From sequence record MT533174.1: a DNA stretch of 64,000 bases; one strand, written 5' to 3'. This DNA comes from Escherichia phage CJ20. This document shows, piece after piece, positions 19,846 through 33,427 of the stretch. Both the position numbers and the translations under genes were made by a program. Below the pieces are notes generated by a model. The model did not search any database. It had not been told where the DNA came from and was given only the letters and a program-made list of their open reading frames with translations. Each line of letters begins with the position of its first letter. Positions within the stretch are counted from its first letter, which is position 1.

Positions 19846-19874
19846 TGTACAAATGAGTGTAGGTGCAGTATTAT
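19845..19874 (+). promoter_or_regulatory. early-promoter-like element (GTGTAC -35, TATTAT -10) inside an inverted repeat
   Basis: AGTAGTGTAC followed 18 bp later by TATTAT; the -10 sits in the palindrome GTGTAGG...CCTACAC. Confidence 0.4.
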
Positions 19875-19905
19875 GCTCCTACACCAACGAACAAACGGAG
19901 TTAAA

Positions 19906-20238
19906 ATGAACATAAAGACTTACAACGAGTTTTTAGCCGAATCCGCCATCAATGAGACCAAATCAATTGATGATAGTGAAGGCTCTCTGAAATTTGGTTT
20001 AACCAAAAATGCAGATGGTGTTTTCTTTCAGATTGGTAATGAACGTTTTCAAACGTCCAAATATTCCAAAGCTGCAGTTGAAGCTGTCCTGAAATCTGGT
20101 GGCAAGTGGAAAGGCAAAGAAGGTACTAAAGAAATTGGCATCGCTGTTGACGGTGGTATGGCTTATTTTAAAATTGGCGATGAACAATTTATTATGTCTG
20201 CTCGCGGACGTAAAGAACTGGCAAAACTTTATAAATAA
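19906..20238 (+). CDS. internal-protein-like small protein with capsid-targeting-type N-terminus (MNIKTYNEFLAES)
   Basis: N-terminus resembles the T4 internal protein targeting sequence MKTYQEFIAEA with Glu at the protease-site position; located at the T4 ipI locus next to 57B. Confidence 0.6.
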   Translation: MNIKTYNEFLAESAINETKSIDDSEGSLKFGLTKNADGVFFQIGNERFQTSKYSKAAVEAVLKSGGKWKGKEGTKEIGIAVDGGMAYFKIGDEQFIMSARGRKELAKLYK

Positions 20239-25904: not shown

Positions 25905-26498
25905 ATGAATACTTTAAAGAAAATTGTTGAATTCATCCGCTCCAAACTGGGTACTGCAATGGCAAAAAACCTGTCTATTGAAGACCAATATACTCAAGCG
26001 GCTTCTACCCTGATTGACAAGATTACTGAGCTCCAGACTGCCCACGTTAAGTCTATTAATGAAGAAAAACGCATCCGCGAGTTGGCGAATGAAAAAGACC
26101 AACTGGCAGCTTCAAAAGAGCGTGAAATCCGCAAACTGATTGCTGATGGTGCGGATGTCCAGGTCCATGCTAAACTGGGTCTCCTGTATCGCCGCACCGC
26201 TAAACAACTTCGTAAGAAGGCAGATGATTATGTTGAAATGCGTAATGAAATTAAATTGAAAGTTAAAGAGCTGGATGACTCTCGTCAGGAACTAGCTGTT
26301 AAACTGGAATACATCCGCGAAACCCGTAAAGTATCTGCTCTGGGTATTGCGACCGCAGATGATGTTGTTGAAATCGCTGCATTGACTAAGATTGATATTG
26401 AAGACACTCTGATGCGTGTTGAAACCTTCAAAGGTCCACAGGTTGGTGTGGATACCACGTCCGCTGACATTGAAGAATACATCAATTCACTTAAGTAA
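25905..26498 (+). CDS. hypothetical coiled-coil protein
   Basis: 197 aa; heptad-like charged helices. Confidence 0.55.
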
Positions 26499-26502
26499 GA
26501 TA

Positions 26503-26520
26503 AAGGGGGCTTTGCCCCCT
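26503..26520 (+). other. GC-rich hairpin (AAGGGGGC-TTT-GCCCCCT)
   Basis: Perfect stem directly after the stop of the 25905 ORF; no clear U-run. Confidence 0.4.
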
Positions 26521-26540
26521 AATTGGGAGAGGAGAAAATT

Positions 26541-27095
26541 ATGAGCTTATATACTGACCTTATATCAAATGTAGACTGGTTTGGCGGTAGTGGTCTTGCT
26601 ACTGAAACTAATACAGTTCTTTATAGAATCCGCGGTGATTTGGGTTATTCCAATGATTTCTTAAGAAGAACGACAAGTCGCGGTGATACTACAAAATTGC
26701 CTTTTATTTTTGCTTTAGCTGAAGACCTTTCTTTTGCAGATGCCTTGGAAATTATTGATGTAAATCTGGGTATTCAACGAGTGGAATTCGCTGGACTACG
26801 TTATTCAGTATATGCTTTAAACGAGAGCGATGATTGTATACTTCTTAATATGGCAGATGATGATTACCATTTAGTATGTTATGTGACGCTAGAAAATGGT
26901 GATGTATTTGGAATGGTTGACCGCCGGCCAGCTTATACTGATATTAAAAATTATGATAAAGATGAGCTTACTATTTTGGCTAATGAGTACACATTAGAGA
27001 GTCGTAAACGGAAACGTAAGCTTAATCGTTTTATTGCTGAATGTCGTGAATATGCTAAAGGGGTTCATAATGCGAACGTTATATCTGCCAAGTAA
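26541..27095 (+). CDS. hypothetical protein with C-terminal FIAECR tail
   Basis: 184 aa from the ATG after GGGAGAGGAG. Confidence 0.55.
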   Translation: MSLYTDLISNVDWFGGSGLATETNTVLYRIRGDLGYSNDFLRRTTSRGDTTKLPFIFALAEDLSFADALEIIDVNLGIQRVEFAGLRYSVYALNESDDCILLNMADDDYHLVCYVTLENGDVFGMVDRRPAYTDIKNYDKDELTILANEYTLESRKRKRKLNRFIAECREYAKGVHNANVISAK

Positions 27096-27429
27096 ACCAG
27101 AAAAATTTGTATACGCAGACAAGATTGATAAAGACCTTATGCCTCCATTTGGAGCTTTGTCCATGTGCATCGTTGGGGTTATAATGATGGTGCTTTGTGG
27201 GGATATGAATATCATTAGTGTTGGAGTCGCCTGGACGCTAGTAATTGCAGCTCCTTTTATTACAGTCCTGTGTATGGTATTGATAAATGTGTGGCATCAA
27301 AATCATATGAATAAAGGTTATCGTGGGCGAGTTAAAGCGTGGGAACAAAAATGTGTTTCCCTGCAAGAAGAGCACAAAATTAAATGTGCCGAAGAATTTA
27401 TTAAGGAGGTTCGTAATGGAACGGCCTAG
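27070..27429 (+). CDS. small membrane protein (C-terminal FIKEVR)
   Basis: 119 aa from the ATG at 27070; two hydrophobic helices. Confidence 0.5.
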   Translation: MRTLYLPSKPEKFVYADKIDKDLMPPFGALSMCIVGVIMMVLCGDMNIISVGVAWTLVIAAPFITVLCMVLINVWHQNHMNKGYRGRVKAWEQKCVSLQEEHKIKCAEEFIKEVRNGTA

Positions 27430-27769
27430 TCTTGCATCACATGTTTATCAATTGGTTGAATATGATATTGGTGCCAATTTATTATTAGGGATTGTCACTG
27501 CCATGCTTGGTGGTTTGGTTGGTCTGGTAATGACCACGGTTATGGCTGCAATCGAGGGAGTCATGCCCATTGAGATGGGTTTCTTTATGATAATCGCTCC
27601 GGCTGTTGTGTCTTATTTTATCCCTGTTGTGTATGATATCTGTCACACAAATGCCGTGAATGCTCCTAGTCGGAAGAGATACGCTTCAGCAATGGCTGAG
27701 TATAATAAGTTCCTAGACAAAACAAAACGTAATGACCTTGAAACCTTTATTAAGGAATGTAAATCATGA
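27416..27769 (+). CDS. small membrane protein (C-terminal FIKECKS)
   Basis: 117 aa from the ATG after AAGGAGG; two or three hydrophobic helices. Confidence 0.55.
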   Translation: MERPSLASHVYQLVEYDIGANLLLGIVTAMLGGLVGLVMTTVMAAIEGVMPIEMGFFMIIAPAVVSYFIPVVYDICHTNAVNAPSRKRYASAMAEYNKFLDKTKRNDLETFIKECKS

Positions 27770-28056
27770 ATAAAATTGAAATTGCTATCCCCAAGTATTA
27801 TGATGAGAAATCTGCAGAAAAAGCCATCTATTCTCTTCTAAATAAGACCTCTGAAATTGAAAAACACTGTGAAGAAATCGCAGATGAATATGGTATCCAA
27901 TTCGGTACCGGTGATTATGGTTCAGGCCGCACATATTATCCTGTCGGTTATGAATGCTCCCAGTGGTTTAAAAATGAAATTGAAAACAACGGTGGTGAAG
28001 TTGAAAACGGTGTCGTTACAGTTGGTGCTTGGGTCTCCTCTTCGGCAATGTGCTAA
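27766..28056 (+). CDS. small protein, tandem paralog family B (C-terminal W-x-SS-x-x-C)
   Basis: 96 aa; ends WVSSSAMC. Confidence 0.55.
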   Translation: MNKIEIAIPKYYDEKSAEKAIYSLLNKTSEIEKHCEEIADEYGIQFGTGDYGSGRTYYPVGYECSQWFKNEIENNGGEVENGVVTVGAWVSSSAMC

Positions 28057-28065
28057 GGAAACGCT

Positions 28066-28347
28066 ATGATGAATGATTACCGTAAAAATAAAGAACTGGC
28101 TAACGCAGTAAATGACATCCATAAAGCTATTCGTCGTGCCGAGGAAATTGCAGACAAATATGAGACTCATTTTAATATATACCCTGCTCGCGGTATGGGC
28201 GGTGACTATTATTCTCCTGGCGCCTTGAAAGCTGACCTTGCCCATTGGGAAGAACATGGTCATCCTGAATGGGCTATTGTTAATACTCATGACTATACAA
28301 CTGACCTGGAAAATGGTGGTTGGGTGTCCTCCTCTTACGAATGCTAA
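28066..28347 (+). CDS. small protein, tandem paralog family B
   Basis: 93 aa; ends WVSSSYEC; EEIADKYE helix shared with the neighbour. Confidence 0.55.
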   Translation: MMNDYRKNKELANAVNDIHKAIRRAEEIADKYETHFNIYPARGMGGDYYSPGALKADLAHWEEHGHPEWAIVNTHDYTTDLENGGWVSSSYEC

Positions 28348-28356
28348 GGAAATAAA

Positions 28357-28584
28357 ATGACTGCTAAAACTGTTAAAGAAATTGAAAACCAAATCCGTGC
28401 ACTAATCTGTGAAGGTGAGCAGCTGGCCGATAAAACTGGTGAATACTTTCATGTGTATGCTGATAGTCTTCAACGATATATTCCCGCAGGTTGTCCAGAA
28501 TATGAAGAATATGACTGGATTCGCGGTGATTACGGTATCCCAGATGGTAAAGGCTTCTGGTTTAACTCCTCTATGACTTGTTAA
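28357..28584 (+). CDS. small protein, tandem paralog family B
   Basis: 75 aa; ends WFNSSMTC. Confidence 0.55.
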   Translation: MTAKTVKEIENQIRALICEGEQLADKTGEYFHVYADSLQRYIPAGCPEYEEYDWIRGDYGIPDGKGFWFNSSMTC

Positions 28585-28593
28585 GGTGATAAA

Positions 28594-28827
28594 ATGACTA
28601 CTGCTGTTGAACATGCTGAATTAGAAAAAGCTGCCCTTGAACTGGCTGCGCTGTATAAGAAAGTAAAAGATATGGCTTCTGCCCAAGATTTCGGTGTTGA
28701 GCTTGACGATTATGATGGCGAAGTCCGTCTTGAAGATTGGTTGAATAGCTCTTGTTACGGTGAAGAAGCTGGTCGTACCTTCGTTGCTCGTGCCGATGGT
28801 AAAATCTGGTACCCGAGCTCATGCTAA
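28594..28827 (+). CDS. small protein, tandem paralog family B
   Basis: 77 aa; ends WYPSSC. Confidence 0.55.
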   Translation: MTTAVEHAELEKAALELAALYKKVKDMASAQDFGVELDDYDGEVRLEDWLNSSCYGEEAGRTFVARADGKIWYPSSC

Positions 28828-29048
28828 AATTAAAGAAAAGATATATTCGTAAAATAAATGGTCTTCGTGATTATGCCAAAGGTTGGCCATTAAGTATTAT
28901 TATGGCTGATAGACATCCACGTTATAATAACGAGTTGACTTATTACAAAAAGTATGATTCGTATTGTCGGTCTAAAGCGGGTCGTTTAGATGGTTCCTAT
29001 GAAGAATATTTCGGTAAAAAACCTACTCGTATTTCGTTAGGAAAATAA
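28821..29048 (+). CDS. hypothetical basic protein
   Basis: 75-aa ORF rich in Lys/Arg/Tyr. Confidence 0.5.
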   Translation: MLKLKKRYIRKINGLRDYAKGWPLSIIMADRHPRYNNELTYYKKYDSYCRSKAGRLDGSYEEYFGKKPTRISLGK

Positions 29049-29078
29049 TTTAATCACAAGGATGTGGTAGGAGGAATT

Positions 29079-29408
29079 ATGCATAAAGATTCGGTATTCA
29101 AATATCTTTTGAAAACAGATAAAGAATTCTATATGAATGGGCAAGCCTTCTTGTTCGTTCGTGGTAAACGTGAGATGTTTTACAAATGCGACCTCTCAAT
29201 GCATCATCATATGTATCATACCCACGGTGAGCATATACTGGGGTTCTCCGGTGACGAGACTAGACATATAGCTATGTACTATGACCATTTTAAGCTTAAT
29301 GATTGTGGTGACAATGCTTTAGTCTGGAACTCATCTTGGCGCCGATGGGACGTAGTAGACAACAATAAATTATTTTTAGAATATTGTCGAAGCAGTATAC
29401 AAGTCTAA
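29079..29408 (+). CDS. hypothetical His-rich protein
   Basis: 109 aa from the ATG after GGAGGA; HHHMYHTHGEH segment suggests metal binding. Confidence 0.5.
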   Translation: MHKDSVFKYLLKTDKEFYMNGQAFLFVRGKREMFYKCDLSMHHHMYHTHGEHILGFSGDETRHIAMYYDHFKLNDCGDNALVWNSSWRRWDVVDNNKLFLEYCRSSIQV

Positions 29409-29472
29409 AAAACTGTGTTACTATACTCCTATCAACTGATGACAATCACGTTATCAGAACAGGAGAATAAAA

Positions 29473-29673
29473 ATGTCTATCGCAAACGAATTAATCAAAG
29501 TTCTGAACGAAGCCAAAGTCAACCAACTGGAGGTTAATCTCCAGGAAGTTTCTGATGGCATTAAAGTAACCATCAGTGGTGATTACGCAGGCGTCACAGA
29601 ACGTGTTTGTGATTCTCTGGAAGAAGTAGTTTCCTGCATTAAAAGAGATATTTACGCATACGGTATTATTTGA
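29473..29673 (+). CDS. hypothetical protein
   Basis: 66-aa ORF after CAGGAGAATAAAAATG. Confidence 0.5.
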   Translation: MSIANELIKVLNEAKVNQLEVNLQEVSDGIKVTISGDYAGVTERVCDSLEEVVSCIKRDIYAYGII

Positions 29674-29683
29674 GGAAAATATT

Positions 29684-29914
29684 ATGTGGTATTACGCCCC
29701 AATGGCTGATGAGCCCGTAAAAATTAGTCGTGCTAAGTTTACAAAGATTTACGGTCTCGTTTATAAGAAGTCTGATTACGGTGTTCGTTTTGAAGATGCG
29801 CACTGTATCAACGACCCTTATAATGAAGACCTCTATGGCAAATTGGTTCCTATCGTTAAGGGGTCCGCTTCTGAGATGATAGATGAATCTAATATCTCTG
29901 CTGCTGAAATTTAA
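29684..29914 (+). CDS. hypothetical protein
   Basis: 76-aa ORF. Confidence 0.5.
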   Translation: MWYYAPMADEPVKISRAKFTKIYGLVYKKSDYGVRFEDAHCINDPYNEDLYGKLVPIVKGSASEMIDESNISAAEI

Positions 29915-29932
29915 GTTACTGAGGAAAATATT

Positions 29933-30892
29933 ATGATGTTAGTTATTGGCTCTCGCGCATTGCATAACGCCGGTCTGATTGAAAGTAAGAAAATTGAAAA
30001 CTCTGATTGGGACTTTATAGCAGACCAAGGTTCCTGGAACAACTTTAAAACCCAGATGATGGGGCAGCATGTTCCTGTGGATAACCCAGATGTGCAAGCT
30101 TTTAAGTGTATGCACAACGGTAAAGAAACCTATTTTGAAGCATACATCGTCCGAGCCCTGACAAGTGTTCGTGAGCTGACTGATGAGCTACAAGAGGAAG
30201 ATTTTACTTCCAGTTATCGTCTGCTCAAATATGCGAAGGCAAATATTCAGAAAGACCGTCTATCTGGTTTTTACTGGGCGACCCCTGATATTTGTCTGGC
30301 AATTAAATTGTCTCATCGTTACCTGAAGAACAATCCATTCTTCCTGAAGACAATGAGCCATATTAATTACCTTCGTAATAAGGGTGTTGTTCTTAATGAT
30401 GAACTACAAAAAATCATGCAACAACGACAGGCAGAAACACTGTCATATAGCCACCCTAAACTAGACGTGGGCAAGAAAACTTTCTTTAATGATACAATCT
30501 ATACCCTTGACCATGACTCCATCCACGAGGCCGTGGCGCTTGCTGATAAGCCTGCATATAAGTTCTATATGAAGGATGATTCAGAAGTTATGACCTCGCG
30601 TGAAAAATTTGAAGCACTCCCTGAGATTATTAAACTGGCAGGGGTTTATGAAGAAGCATGTGTGCTCGCTCTGGAGCGTTCGCAGGTTCCTAATGAGTTC
30701 AATATTTCTCCATCCGTGAGCTTCCATATTGCACTGGAAAAAGTCTGTACCTCCATTACTTCTGGATGGTTCCGTGAGTATGCCTGGGAACATTACCAGG
30801 AAGTGGTTAATATGTACAACACCCTGGGTCACGAAGACTATGTTAAACGTTTCAAGGCTAACCAACATTTAATTCGTCCTTTCGAAAAATAA
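29933..30892 (+). CDS. hypothetical 319-aa protein
   Basis: Long ORF; N-terminal IGSRAL...SDWDFIAD is weakly reminiscent of nucleotidyltransferase-fold motifs. Confidence 0.6.
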   Translation: MMLVIGSRALHNAGLIESKKIENSDWDFIADQGSWNNFKTQMMGQHVPVDNPDVQAFKCMHNGKETYFEAYIVRALTSVRELTDELQEEDFTSSYRLLKYAKANIQKDRLSGFYWATPDICLAIKLSHRYLKNNPFFLKTMSHINYLRNKGVVLNDELQKIMQQRQAETLSYSHPKLDVGKKTFFNDTIYTLDHDSIHEAVALADKPAYKFYMKDDSEVMTSREKFEALPEIIKLAGVYEEACVLALERSQVPNEFNISPSVSFHIALEKVCTSITSGWFREYAWEHYQEVVNMYNTLGHEDYVKRFKANQHLIRPFEK

Positions 30893-30951
30893 TTGTGTAC
30901 ATCCAAGTGGGGCTATGACACAATGGTCCCACAATCAATGAGGAAAATATT

Positions 30952-31644
30952 ATGAACAGTCCAAAAACTTTTAATAGTCAAATGCGTGAAGTTGGTCAAT
31001 TTGCTCAATATGTCAGTAATGACGAAATCAAAAATGAACCGATGTTCTTTAACTGCTATCCAGAATTTGCGCATAAGCATGGTGGCCCAATCACGCGCAG
31101 TTTTCTTGATAACCTACCAAAAGAATGGACTGATGGTCCTGATAATTTGGTGTTTGACTCTCGCGTCCATATGTTGATGCCTGGTTGGTATCCTGCTATC
31201 CCTGGGTATCACCATGATGATGTACCACGTCCAGATATTCCAGCAGGACAACATTTTATTACAGCAGGACAACCTGATTATGATAACCCTCGTTACCATT
31301 CTGAACACATCCTGGGTCTGGTTAACGCTTCTGTTTGCCCTACTAATTTTGCTCTGGGAACTTCAGAATTCAGTCAGATTCCTGATGGCGAACTTATCTA
31401 TCGCCAGTGGCACCAGGAAGTTCTGGAAAAAATCAAGGCGGGTGAACTTTTAGTTCAAGAAGCTCCTGACCGCACATTATGTGAATTCAACTGGCAGACC
31501 TGGCATACTGGAACAAAAACAGTTAGTAACGGTTGGCGCTGGTTTGGTCGCGTATCTCGTAAAACAGACCGTGTTAATAAAGTTACCAATGAAATCCGCG
31601 TTAATGCTCAAGTATATCTGGAATTCCCCATGGAGGGCTGGTAA
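30952..31644 (+). CDS. hypothetical 230-aa protein
   Basis: Long ORF with GAGGAAA ribosome-binding site; His/Asp-rich segment PGYHHDDVP. Confidence 0.6.
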   Translation: MNSPKTFNSQMREVGQFAQYVSNDEIKNEPMFFNCYPEFAHKHGGPITRSFLDNLPKEWTDGPDNLVFDSRVHMLMPGWYPAIPGYHHDDVPRPDIPAGQHFITAGQPDYDNPRYHSEHILGLVNASVCPTNFALGTSEFSQIPDGELIYRQWHQEVLEKIKAGELLVQEAPDRTLCEFNWQTWHTGTKTVSNGWRWFGRVSRKTDRVNKVTNEIRVNAQVYLEFPMEGW

Positions 31645-32231
31645 TGGCCCTTTATGAACCTGGGTGTATGGGTGTTGATGTAAACTTCATCCGTCGCCCA
31701 GAAAATGCAGGAATTATTGTCTCAAGAGACGAATTTATGATTACCAAAAGATATTGGGCGGACCTTGATGATGGTGATGAAGGAATCAAGGTTGAAAACG
31801 TTGATTGGTCGCGATGCAATCGTCATGTGAAAGAGCTTTTAATTAAGGAATATAAAATGGGATATATTGTTAATGGGTATCAACCGGAACCACTCAAAGA
31901 ACAGACACCCGACCCATTAATTTCTTATAGCAAGAAATATGGATTTCGTACCTGGAAAGATGAATTTGATAAGTTAATTTGTTCCAGGTTTTATGTGTGG
32001 GCTGGAATCTTATTTTTACCAATCCTGTTGTTTTTCTTGACAGGTAAAAATGAAGCACCTGTGGCTGTAATGGGTGCGTGCATTTCTTCTGCTGCTGTTG
32101 GACTTATTGCATCATTTTTATGGACTATGGCTATTGAAGTACCTTTTCGTATTTCTAAAGTTAAAAAGGTATACGACGATATCGCTAAGAAAAATACATT
32201 AAATTCTTTTATTGAGGAATGCCGTAAATGA
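31644..32231 (+). CDS. membrane protein (C-terminal FIEECRK)
   Basis: 195 aa; two hydrophobic helices; C-terminal tail matches the family at 26541-27769. Confidence 0.55.
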   Translation: MALYEPGCMGVDVNFIRRPENAGIIVSRDEFMITKRYWADLDDGDEGIKVENVDWSRCNRHVKELLIKEYKMGYIVNGYQPEPLKEQTPDPLISYSKKYGFRTWKDEFDKLICSRFYVWAGILFLPILLFFLTGKNEAPVAVMGACISSAAVGLIASFLWTMAIEVPFRISKVKKVYDDIAKKNTLNSFIEECRK

Positions 32232-32464
32232 GTATTGCAATTTATATTAAATCTGAGTCGTGTGATTCTTATCTGTATTCCTATGACACCGGAACATCAG
32301 AAGAGAAAATCAAAGAAGATTTGGAAAGTGACTTGGATATGTTCCGGCCTATTTCCGATTATATGGTCCAAATATCTGATAGTGAAAGCCCATCAACAGA
32401 AACATGCGTTGAAATTATTATGGCCGAAATCTTTAAAAAATCTTGGGAACGTGATGATGAGTAA
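32228..32464 (+). CDS. hypothetical acidic protein
   Basis: 78-aa ORF, ATGA-coupled to the previous gene. Confidence 0.5.
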   Translation: MSIAIYIKSESCDSYLYSYDTGTSEEKIKEDLESDLDMFRPISDYMVQISDSESPSTETCVEIIMAEIFKKSWERDDE

Positions 32465-32935: not shown

Positions 32936-33427
32936 ATGAATATATTCGAAATGTTACGCATAGATGAAGGTTGTAAGTTGGATTTGTATAAAGATACTGA
33001 AGGCTATTGGACCATTGGTATCGGGCAACTGATAACTAAGAACCCATCAAAAGATGTTGCTCGTGCCGAGCTCGACAAGCTCATGGGTCGCGTCTGTAAT
33101 GGTCGCATAACCCAGCACGAAGCTGAAACATTGTTTAACCGTTCGGTCGAAAAAGCTAAAGCCGGAATCTTGAGACACCCTGTCTTAAAACCTGTTTATG
33201 ATGTGCTAGATGAAGTTCGTCGTTGTGCACTCATTAATATGGTATTCCAGATGGGTGTTGCTGGTGTTGCTGGTTTTCCTAAGGGTATGCGATTGTTGAA
33301 GGCCAAATCGTGGGAAGCCGCCGCCAAGGAACTGGCCGACTCGAGATGGTATAAAGTCCAGACTCCGAACCGAGCCAAACGAGTTATAGAAACGTTCCGT
33401 ACCGGAACTTTTAGCGCATACAAATAA
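32936..33427 (+). CDS. e: endolysin (T4 lysozyme e)
   Basis: 163 aa; [12 protein letters not shown]...[13 protein letters not shown]...[12 protein letters not shown]...[14 protein letters not shown] closely matches T4 lysozyme with Glu11, Asp20 and Thr26 conserved. Confidence 0.95.

Follow-up and report, generated by a model that had tools for sequence, protein, structure and literature searches.

The window is the whole stretch of DNA analysed here, 64,000 nucleotides (64 kb) from Escherichia phage CJ20 (record MT533174.1). It comes from a Gaprivervirus and is 95% identical to Shigella phage SP18. Four of its open reading frames, called A, B, C, and D, are the counterparts of the T4 genes e.5, e.4, e.3, and e.2. 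Compared with T4, their order is conserved, and all four stand 3' of e.6 (Table 1). A and B overlap by 26 nt and B and C by 14 nt, and C and D each overlap the following gene as ATGA. Reading on from e.6 into A meets two stop codons in the spacer. The hairpin genes (B, C, and D) encode small inner-membrane products and lie upstream of nudE and the lysozyme gene e. In T4, the products of e.2, e.3, e.4, and e.5 are catalogued as hypothetical or predicted membrane proteins, and databases keep them as four unrelated families without an assigned function.

Table 1. Genes, predicted transmembrane (TM) segments, tail motifs, and Shine-Dalgarno elements, in window coordinates
Feature	Position	Strand	Description
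e.6	25905..26498	+	197 aa, all-helical, highly conserved
ORF A	26541..27095	+	184 aa, soluble, e.5 position, probable remote e.5 homologue
ORF B	27070..27429	+	119 aa, T4 e.4 homologue, two-TM hairpin
ORF C	27416..27769	+	117 aa, T4 e.3 homologue, two-TM hairpin
ORF D	31644..32231	+	195 aa, full-length form of T4 e.2
TM segments of B	~27145-27201, ~27235-27291	+	Kyte-Doolittle
TM segments of C	~27479-27535, ~27575-27631	+	Kyte-Doolittle
TM segments of D	TM1 ~31989-32045, TM2 ~32061-32117	+	Kyte-Doolittle
Tail motif of A	27021..27047	+	L-N-R-F-I-A-E-C-R
Tail motif of B	27388..27414	+	A-E-E-F-I-K-E-V-R (V for C)
Tail motif of C	27737..27763	+	L-E-T-F-I-K-E-C-K
Tail motif of D	32199..32225	+	L-N-S-F-I-E-E-C-R
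Shine-Dalgarno of B	27057-27063		AAAGGGG, 6 nt before ATG 27070
Shine-Dalgarno of C	27403-27409		AAGGAGG, within the K-E-V codons of the B tail; ATG 27416
Shine-Dalgarno of gene after C	27752-27757		AAGGAA, within the C tail; ATG 27766
Shine-Dalgarno of gene after D	32214-32219		GAGGAA, within the D tail; ATG 32228

The four proteins end in similar tails: A in ...LNRFIAECREYAKGVHNANVISAK, B in ...AEEFIKEVRNGTA, C in ...LETFIKECKS, and D in ...LNSFIEECRK. In A, a 17-residue extension separates the motif from the stop codon, and this extension is an out-of-frame reading of the start of B. The original prediction held that these four ORFs share an F-I-x-E-C tail, and counting bears this out. A six-frame translation of the window contains the pattern FI.E[CV][RK] exactly four times, each at one of these C-terminal sites. 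The prediction also named what would refute it, namely shuffled or unrelated proteins carrying the motif about as often. In 2000 residue shuffles of the 128 putative genes of the window, the mean number of C-terminal matches was 0.007 and the maximum 1, compared with the four observed. A looser regular expression picked out two further proteins of the window (19873-20238 and 1005-2540), both unrelated.

The tail is also found beyond this phage. A stricter pattern, [FW][IV]..C[RK] near the C-terminus, was counted in about 60 related loci plus the window; it is present in 158 of 1825 ORFs on the + strand and in none of 773 on the - strand. When the full genome of a close relative (TH41, 170.5 kb) was searched, the strict C-terminal motif turned up in e.5, e.3, and e.2 and in no other real gene. 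The e.4 gene of TH41 has V for C, and two 51-aa ORFs that are probably spurious match the strict motif as well.

The identity of each ORF follows from homology or position. B matches phrog_2604 (E = 1.2e-44) and is labelled e.4 in SP18; phmmer retrieves T4 e.4, with which it has the N-terminal LYLPSKP in common. C matches phrog_2330 (E = 2.5e-45), and phmmer retrieves T4 e.3 at E < 1e-5. D matches phrog_2203 over residues 32-195 (E = 1.9e-66), is labelled e.2 in SP18, and is located just upstream of nudE and e. Homologues of D carry a precomputed assignment to PF26896 (Phage_T4_Y06M), a family absent from the local Pfam copy, so that D itself has no Pfam match. Another family, PF26873, is found on a natural e.4/e.2 chimera (P0046). 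The T4 reference e.2, unlike D, is only 102 aa long, truncated such that TM2 and the tail are missing, and relatives of T4 have a 162-aa e.2 ending in NFITECRKLK. Within the e.2 family (~25-30% identity), no column is invariant except C193 and R194. The tails in T4 read ...KFVKECREY..., ...KFVKESRCK..., and ...EFVIDCRKIK.

ORF A is the most remote case. It matches phrog_8788 (E = 6.6e-113) and sits directly after e.6, as T4 e.5 does. T4 e.5 is not reached from A by jackhmmer, and the other PHROG matches are weak (phrog_2607, E = 0.015; phrog_13418, E = 0.026). The family of A is very narrow, with relatives at 68% identity or more in word-indexed searches. An alignment of seven e.5 sequences has a central block in common (RYSVYALNE / EWSVCYLND / KYSIYAFNE) in addition to the tail. 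When A is aligned with T4, RB69-like, and RB49-like e.5 at ~18% identity, the invariant positions are M1, N94, F123, F164, C168, and R169, the last three of which belong to the tail. For A to D and e.6, no Pfam, NCBIfam, or PHROG family of known function gave a significant match, only sub-threshold noise such as DUF3487 and SieB.

Across the ~60 related loci, the motif can be generalised to Φ-x-x-[F/W]-[I/V]-x-x-C-R-[K/R], numbered here from F at position 0. Position -3 is L, I, V, or F in 96 of 103 non-redundant tails. The truly conserved residues are the hydrophobic one at -3, followed by F, I/V, C, and R; the spacing of -3, 0, +1, and +4 places them on one face of a helix. The Glu of the proposed F-I-x-E-C does not hold up outside this lineage. 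It is present at +3 in only 43/103 tails, and its codons coincide with the Shine-Dalgarno sequence of the next gene. In the e.4 subfamily the Cys position is occupied by V, S, M, A, or I, and for that reason the Cys may be only a small hydrophobic residue on the helix face. The motif is followed by 0-15 residues after C-R in the 103 tails, and by 24 in BHU20.

Membrane topology largely agrees with what was predicted. By Kyte-Doolittle hydropathy, B, C, and D have two hydrophobic segments each and A has none, in line with the three of four said to carry transmembrane helices. The description of the family as membrane proteins is therefore right for B, C, and D and wrong for A, which is soluble; small soluble members are found in other phages too. 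A cytoplasmic location of the tail is supported by the positive-inside rule: in 48 two-TM members, the mean number of K+R is 2.4 in the N-terminal flank, 0.5 in the loop, and 2.5 in the C-terminal flank. The e.4, e.3, and e.2 types are thus predicted to be N-in/C-in two-helix hairpins of the inner membrane.

Between TM2 and the motif lies a charged, helical stalk of 15-45 residues, and this variation rules out a fixed TM2-to-motif "ruler". D has in addition a cytoplasmic N-terminal domain (~residues 31-70) and a long C-terminal helix after TM2. Its AlphaFold2 model contains helices at 105-133 and 139-194, with a pLDDT of ~90 over the last 40 residues, and shows the tail as the last part of an uninterrupted helix that extends from TM2. 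The tail segment has an amphipathic character (helical hydrophobic moment 1.2-1.8) and a mean hydropathy of -0.5 to -1.3.

Outside the tail, the proteins have little in common. C and D aligned with their tails give P = 3e-6 over 19 columns in hhalign, and most of this similarity is gone without them. With the tails removed, profile-profile comparison gives P values of only 0.003-0.012: 0.003 for B-C (75 collinear columns), 0.012 for B-D, and 0.0035 for C-D (8 columns). The proteins are accordingly "otherwise divergent", as had been proposed. Matches across families exist at the PHROG level (B to phrog_2330, 8.6e-4; C to phrog_2203, 6.8e-4), although TM composition may inflate these scores. The e.2, e.3, and e.4 hairpins have their architecture in common, plus a P-x-R after TM2, and in their combined alignment F is the sole invariant column. 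By these comparisons the tail is the most conserved, and often the sole invariant, part of the proteins, and likewise the region under the strongest purifying selection.

In several genes the same nucleotides also serve translation. The tails of B, C, and D contain the Shine-Dalgarno sequence of the gene that follows, whereas the tail of A is not that of B, which uses a separate element. One might thus suppose that the peptide motif is a by-product of the initiation regions of downstream genes, made of an A/U-rich leader and a Shine-Dalgarno sequence. The K/E-E codons of B, C, and D do lie 6-8 nt upstream of the following ATG; a Shine-Dalgarno-like core begins at codon +2 in 35 of 73 tails and at the Arg codon in 13 of 73; and ATGA overlaps make up 34 of 89 downstream starts. 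Moreover, the initiation region AARGRGGTTCRWAATG is repeated, and the e.4 gene, missing from JS98-like phages, is absent exactly between two of its copies.

Codon usage speaks against such an origin. Among 112 distinct tail DNAs, F is encoded by TTT (84) and TTC (26), C by TGT (59) and TGC (46), and R by CGT (37), AGA (25), AGG (17), CGC (11), CGA (10), and CGG (2), and the I/V position uses six codons. Since six Arg and two Cys codons are in use, synonymous changes keep the peptide and not the RNA, and selection acts on the former. In A and many other e.5 proteins the motif is not a Shine-Dalgarno sequence, yet F, C, and R are retained, and elsewhere the register between the two varies. Compared as DNA, the window's four tails agree at only 13-20 of 27 nt, which argues against the RNA-level account and also rejects gene conversion or a DNA repeat as the origin of the tail. 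As the main cause, RNA-level constraint is rejected on codon usage and is left with a very small probability. It probably accounts for K/E-E being favoured at +2/+3 in this lineage, whereas F, I/V, C, and R are not explained by it. The locus is thus a clean example of double duty, in which one stretch encodes a peptide motif under selection and also provides the following gene with its ribosome-binding site.

The motif is the hallmark of a tandem, fast-diverging family of accessory genes located between e.6 and e in T4-type phages. This family consists of T4 e.5, e.4, e.3, and e.2, together with extra paralogues in other genera. A profile search with the hairpin-plus-tail alignment against 1.84 billion representatives returned only 25 clusters. 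All of those inspected belong to T4-type phages or to T4-like contexts, and none is a bacterial or annotated relative. Word-indexed searches found T4-type phage proteins only.

The family is closely associated with e.6, which is found in 1110 phage records and in every fetched locus directly precedes the tail family. With few exceptions among the loci inspected, the first gene downstream of e.6 encodes the motif, even where identity in e.6 falls to 31-32%; distant instances are ...AYIDQCREEY in Cronobacter phage VP8 and ...KFIHSCKK in BHU20. In RB49-like loci only the pair of e.6 and e.5 is retained.

The preferred reading, to which a probability of roughly 0.55 is given, is that the shared tail is a docking motif for a common partner. 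In this model, the end of a cytoplasmic alpha helix would display the motif, with e.5 as a soluble protein and the e.4, e.3, and e.2 types carrying it on a stalk beyond TM2. Through this docking peptide, a single cytoplasmic partner at the inner membrane face would be shared by all members of the family. The strong purifying selection on the tail fits a specific shared interaction of this kind. Of the original suggestion of a common interaction partner or signal, the partner is thus retained and a signal specific to the C-terminus is not, as the motif lies up to 24 residues from the end. The variable stalk counts against the docking reading in so far as it implies no fixed geometry. The substitutions of the Cys in the e.4 subfamily speak against it as well. 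The preferred candidate for the partner is e.6, encoded as it is immediately upstream in every locus fetched. This choice is speculative. Synteny is conserved in T4-type phages in general, and adjacency is accordingly weak evidence of partnership.

An alternative without any external partner is that the tail is an oligomerisation helix, by which members pair with themselves or each other through the L/F/I/C face, so that e.5, for instance, is recruited to the hairpins. The hydrophobic residues at -3, 0, +1, and +4 form a heptad-like a/d/e/a pattern, the tail helix of D is predicted with high confidence by AlphaFold2, and several members are co-encoded and translationally coupled. The substitutions of Cys in the e.4 type are also those of a core position. 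However, about nine conserved residues are short for a coiled coil, and the strict conservation of Cys and Arg exceeds what hydrophobic packing needs. RB49-like phages have one tail-bearing protein in the stretch examined, so hetero-oligomerisation is not the general role, though homo-oligomerisation is still compatible with it. On balance this alternative is doubtful. Less likely again is a C-terminal signal, either a degradation tag or an amphipathic membrane-targeting helix. MuA-type ClpX signals are basic C-termini, and MinD and FtsA have amphipathic membrane-targeting helices. The tails do end in basic residues (CRK, CRKLK, VRRK), and an amphipathic segment could bring the soluble e.5 to the membrane. 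The variable number of residues after C-R makes a degradation or recognition tag read at the free C-terminus unlikely. As for a membrane-targeting helix, the segment is too polar for lipid binding, and in the hairpins a continuous helix holds the tail 15-45 residues away from the membrane. Generic signals, in addition, conserve physico-chemical character and not an invariant Cys-Arg pair.

The original prediction guessed at a role in superinfection exclusion or in the timing of lysis. This found no support and is now very unlikely. In such a role the tail would touch the machinery of either process. What speaks for it are the small inner-membrane proteins upstream of nudE and the lysozyme gene, a sub-threshold match of C to SieB (PF14163; E = 0.19), and the label "holin" given to the counterpart of D in one GenBank record. 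The SieB match scores 11.8 bits against a cutoff of 26, with no match from the other ORFs, and there is no significant match to the exclusion and lysis families covered by Pfam, NCBIfam, and PHROG. The label is automatic, and the same record has evidently spurious "malate synthase" and "transposase" labels on 75-aa ORFs. Furthermore, the core of the family is the soluble e.5 paired with e.6, which neither function explains. It is extremely unlikely that the tail mimics the T4 capsid-targeting sequence, a site of the prohead protease (gp21). T4 internal proteins start with MKTY-x-EFI-x-E and are cleaved after I-x-E. The F-I-x-E is indeed common to both, and Ip-like ORFs of the window (33436 and 34911) were caught by the loose regular expression. 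Those sequences are N-terminal, though, and the tail motifs sit at the C-terminal end, for the most part of membrane proteins. The conserved C and R are absent from the capsid-targeting sequence, and other genera do not retain the Glu (FIKGCRK, FVDQCR, FIKNCRR, FVDYCRR); the reading is rejected on the position of the motif and the scarcity of the Glu.

The model of e.6 is a long helical hairpin; in Foldseek, its nine best hits are Vipp1 without exception, and the archaeal ESCRT-III protein CdvB2 comes next. This resemblance to Vipp1/PspA is not statistically secure, and the fold match is ambiguous with respect to BAR-like bundles. At the sequence level, membership of e.6 in the PspA/Vipp1/ESCRT-III superfamily finds no support. 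There is no Pfam match at E <= 0.1, a profile search of PDB sequences found neither PspA nor Vipp1, and hhalign gave non-significant values against E. coli PspA (P = 0.22) and a 79-sequence enterobacterial PspA alignment (P = 0.11), the latter being shallow because the contig scan yielded only sequences of at least 83% identity. That e.6 is a phage PspA/Vipp1/ESCRT-III-like protein that remodels or protects membranes, and which the hairpins and e.5 recruit or regulate at the inner membrane through the tail, is improbable. Were it true, the system might keep the infected membrane energised against injection damage, holin leakage, or abortive-infection effectors that attack membranes.

Although no lytic phage has been studied better than T4, its genes e.2 to e.6 are without an assigned function. 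A motif uniting e.2-e.5 and the small soluble proteins was not found in the annotations or literature searched, and the literature covered (on e.2-e.6, the e-segB intergenic region, hyperplastic regions, phage PspA/ESCRT-III, and CRISPRi-ART/HIDEN-SEQ) has nothing on these genes. The tail ties four families catalogued as unrelated, and their paralogues, to one strongly selected nine-residue motif that is probably cytoplasmic. Since the tail families almost always travel with e.6, a block of ORFans becomes a single testable module. Should e.6 be a genuine relative of PspA/ESCRT-III, the module would amount to a membrane-remodelling system encoded by the phage and equipped with a dedicated family of adaptors.

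Among known systems, e.6 and the tail proteins would parallel PspA with PspB/PspC in E. coli, or LiaH with LiaI in B. subtilis, where a soluble protein that remodels membranes is encoded together with small membrane adaptors. It is these adaptors that recruit the PspA homologue or regulate it (review PMC7619361). The e.6 locus likewise has a conserved, soluble helical hairpin protein, with an N-terminal helix, beside several small membrane proteins with cytoplasmic C-terminal helices. It differs in that e.6 has no sequence homology to PspA, nor B, C, and D to PspB, PspC, or LiaI, and that the soluble, tail-bearing e.5 has no counterpart there.

The T4 proteins Imm, Sp, RI, and holin T, whose roles are known, and lambdoid SieB are also small inner-membrane phage proteins from non-structural regions. 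There is no detectable homology to them, and those families have neither a shared C-terminal motif nor a soluble paralogue.

An analogy for the motif itself is provided by the MIM helices of ESCRT-III proteins, which bind MIT domains and exemplify a short docking motif common to several clients of one hub. Like a MIM, the T4-type tail is a helix of ~9 residues with few invariant positions, located at the C-terminus or close to it in proteins that are otherwise unrelated, though the sequence pattern is different.

At the level of genes, the comparison is with the hyperplastic regions of T4, which undergo modular shuffling of the PeSL type (PMC2839356, PMC4122927). The array of e genes similarly gains and loses members by recombination at short repeated regulatory sequences, as in the loss of e.4 in JS98-like phages and the chimera of P0046. 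In PeSL the repeat is a cassette of promoter and stem-loop, whereas in the e-gene array it is a ribosome-binding region that overlaps the coding tail.

Four ORFs in the window, here called A, B, C and D, share a C-terminal peptide. Their tails read LNRFIAECREY... in A, AEEFIKEVRNGTA in B, LETFIKECKS in C and LNSFIEECRK in D. The original prediction of a common tail holds: a six-frame translation of the 64 kb contains its pattern, FI.E[CV][RK], exactly four times, at these sites only, and 2000 residue shuffles of 128 putative genes gave a mean of 0.007 C-terminal hits and a maximum of one. As had also been noted, three of the four carry hydrophobic segments upstream, two each in B, C and D and none in A.

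Positions 26400-32300 match 268 T4-type phage records; with Shigella phage SP18 (Gaprivervirus, Tevenvirinae) the identity is 94.7%. The genes are collinear with the T4 order e.6, e.5, e.4, e.3, e.2, nudE, e, and the + strand of the window has the orientation of early transcription in T4.

Features of the e.6 to lysozyme region, in window coordinates
Feature	Position	Strand	Remark
e.6	25905-26498	+	directly upstream of A
GC stem-loop	26506-26520		between e.6 and A
A	26541-27095	+	e.5 position
B	27070-27429	+	e.4 (PHROG and phmmer matches)
AAGGAGG	27403-27409	+	6 nt before C ATG
C	27416-27769	+	e.3 (PHROG and phmmer matches)
AAGGAA	27752-27757	+	8 nt before ATG 27766
Small-ORF insert, ~3.9 kb			between C and D
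Four tandem ORFs (96, 93, 75, 77 aa)	27766-28827		match phrog_899
DUF7275/DUF7277 protein, 319 aa	29933-30892		constant member of region
phrog_1843 protein, 230 aa	30952-31644		abuts e.2 start directly
D	31644-32231	+	e.2 (PHROG and phmmer matches)
GAGGAA	32214-32219	+	8 nt before ATG 32228
78-aa ORF, then nudE		+	between D and lysozyme e
Lysozyme e	32936-33427	+	last gene of the e.6 to e order
ORF, ~100 aa	33436-33738		probably Ip-like head protein
ORF, ~100 aa	34911-35210		probably Ip-like head protein

Several other elements accompany these genes. B has two candidate starts: ATG 27052, which gives a 125-aa protein in some records and matches the T4 e.4 start in position, and ATG 27070, the only one with a good SD (AAAGGGG, 6-nt spacer). 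The perfect stem-loop GGGGGC TTT GCCCCC lacks a T-run on the + strand, and a strong SD for A (GGAGAGGAG) comes after it; a role in RNA stability or processing is possible. The phrog_1843 protein ends ...RVNAQVYLEFPMEGW. It adjoins the e.2 start also in several genera (L009, L017, L020), is separated from it by a short gene or spacer in L057 and L066, and is missing from T4. Of the two Ip-like ORFs, the first apparently starts with the T4 internal-protein capsid-targeting sequence; the apparent targeting start of the second comes from a loose-regex match at the same N-terminal offset alone.

The motif was followed through about 60 loci fetched via e.6, plus three very distant loci from GenBank. 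In T4, the tail reads ...KFVKECREY... in e.5, ...KFVKESRCKSQS in e.4 and ...EFVIDCRKIK in e.3. With 102 residues, the e.2 of the T4 reference (NC_000866 67652-67960; L003 2153-2461) is truncated and lacks the second transmembrane helix (TM2) and the tail; in T4 relatives e.2 has 162 residues and ends NFITECRKLK. The tail family lies immediately downstream of the strongly conserved e.6 in all fetched loci. The protein directly after e.6, which is soluble, 93-323 aa long and barely alignable across genera, carries the motif in nearly all inspected loci (FVDQCR, FVESCRK, FVDYCRR, FINLCR, FVKMCR; FIHSCKK in BHU20), including Cronobacter VP8 (YIDQCREEY) at just 31% e.6 identity. The sole exception, L056, has two short ORFs without the motif in this slot. 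Each locus also encodes zero to six tail-bearing hairpins with two transmembrane helices, and some encode additional small soluble proteins with the tail, for example ...LDAFIKQCRRNQNVS.

A profile of 103 non-redundant tails, numbered from F/W as 0, has L, I, V or F in 96 at position -3, which the search left free. The search pattern [FW][IV]..C[RK] pre-set positions 0, +1, +4 and +5, where the counts inform only about the choice made inside each class: 102 F and one W at 0, 87 I and 16 V at +1, C at +4, and 91 R and 12 K at +5. The Glu of the proposed F-I-x-E-C consensus is found in just 43 of the 103. The search pattern matches 158 of 1825 + strand ORFs versus 0 of 773 on the - strand; both in the complete genome of TH41, a close relative, and in T4 over its first 100 kb, it is limited to the e.6-e locus.

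Two further C-terminal patterns were seen alongside. In 230-kb Aeromonas-type phages (L049/L050 4651-5932), the two proteins after e.6 end SFINYCI... and SFVEYCI..., without Arg, a variant that could aid mapping of the motif residues that matter. The four phrog_899 ORFs share a second motif, W-x-[S/N/P]-S-S-x-x-C, at the extreme C-terminus (WVSSSAMC, WVSSSYEC, WFNSSMTC, WYPSSC), and their family is mixed among the F-I-x-x-C-R proteins in most T4-type loci inspected.

Conservation in these proteins is highest in the tail. Among e.2 homologues (23 sequences, ~25-30% identity) C193 and R194 are the sole invariant columns; in e.5-position proteins (n=7, ~18% identity) F164, C168 and R169 are three of six; and across 15 aligned hairpins the only invariant residue is the Phe. 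Profile-profile comparison of C with D gives P = 3e-6 over 19 columns, all in the tail. Without tails the values are 0.003 (B-C), 0.012 (B-D) and 0.0035 (C-D), which suggests that the hairpins are probably old paralogues whose homology is barely detectable beyond the tail. They have a common architecture, with P-x-R following TM2, and e.3 and e.4 share a K-P-S-x-x-L-P-S-K-P-like start. When 1.84 billion representative proteins were searched exhaustively with a profile, just 25 clusters emerged, so the family appears restricted to T4-type phages.

The predicted cytoplasmic location of the tail agrees with positive-inside counts. Over 48 two-TM members the mean K+R is lower in the loop (0.5) than in the N-flank (2.4) or the C-flank (2.5), which would place both termini in the cytoplasm. 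The AlphaFold2 model of D (23-sequence alignment, mean pLDDT 76) has a small confident N-domain (residues 31-70), the first transmembrane helix at 105-133, and a single unbroken helix from TM2 through the tail (139-194, pLDDT ~90). In this modelled helix, positions -3, 0, +1 and +4 share one face.

The arrays appear to gain and lose genes. The initiation regions of B and C (27057-27072, 27403-27418) are near-identical repeats (AARGRGGTTCRTAATG). In JS98-like phages e.4 is absent exactly between two copies of the repeated region AARGRGGTTCRWAATG (L009 10123-10202), and their e.5 therefore ends FIAECREYAKEVQNGTA. The position of this absence points to a gene cassette gained or lost through recombination at a ribosome-binding site. 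A natural chimera in phage UFV05 (P0046) joins an e.4 N-terminus to an e.2 C-terminus.

Tail codons overlie the regions where translation of each following gene is initiated. That the motif is an RNA-level by-product is a rival reading. In a set of 112 distinct tails, ATGA overlaps make up 34 of 89 downstream starts; of 73 cases, 35 have an SD-like core starting at codon +2 and 13 have one starting at the Arg codon. This dual use probably accounts for the K/E-E preference of the window's lineage; it is insufficient to explain the motif as a whole. Codon usage weakens the RNA reading: Arg uses all six codons (CGT 37, AGA 25, AGG 17, CGC 11, CGA 10, CGG 2), Cys both TGT (59) and TGC (46), Phe TTT (84) and TTC (26), and I/V six codons. 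A retains the motif although it is not the SD of B. Gene conversion as the source of the shared tails is ruled out, since the window's four share just 13-20 of 27 nt. A C-terminal signal is likewise weakened, because the distance from motif to C-terminus varies. The 17 residues beyond the motif in A are an out-of-frame reading of the B start (MRTLYLPSKP), and the T4 e.5 end, ...CREYVKAITIPSK, likewise overlaps the e.4 start.

Together, this shows a specific cytoplasmic-side peptide motif under strong selection, common to a soluble protein and co-encoded hairpins. Its most economical explanation would be a docking motif for one shared partner; rivals are self- or cross-oligomerisation through the tail and the two weakened readings, a C-terminal signal and an RNA-level by-product. 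The suggested roles in superinfection exclusion or lysis timing found no support. Databases list the genes under separate families of unknown function (PF26896 Phage_T4_Y06M; PHROGs 2203, 2330, 2604, 8788), and no mention of the shared motif or of a PspA-like e.6 was found in papers or annotations, within incomplete literature coverage.

The preferred candidate for the docking partner, with low confidence, is e.6. It is present in 1110 phage records; 30 aligned sequences are 46-83% identical to the window protein (mean column identity 64%). Its AlphaFold2 model (mean pLDDT 73, hairpin 81-96) runs from an N-terminal helix through a long hairpin (25-80, 86-145) to short helices at the C-terminus. 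Foldseek matches in the PDB speak for a PspA-like fold: the best nine are all Vipp1 (E = 5.7e-3 to 7e-2), and archaeal ESCRT-III CdvB2 comes next. Against it, no sequence method used found a link to PspA. The modelled fold is therefore best called membrane-remodeller-like, with PspA as a candidate family. The e.6 C-terminus has a similar amphipathic pattern (I-E-E-Y-I-N-S-L-K), a likeness to the tail that may be generic.

This candidate is favoured because e.6 and e.5 form the conserved core of the module, and because PspA-type proteins usually work together with small adaptors in the membrane, PspB/C and LiaI among them (PMC7619361). RB49-like phages retain just the e.6 and e.5 pair in the stretch examined.
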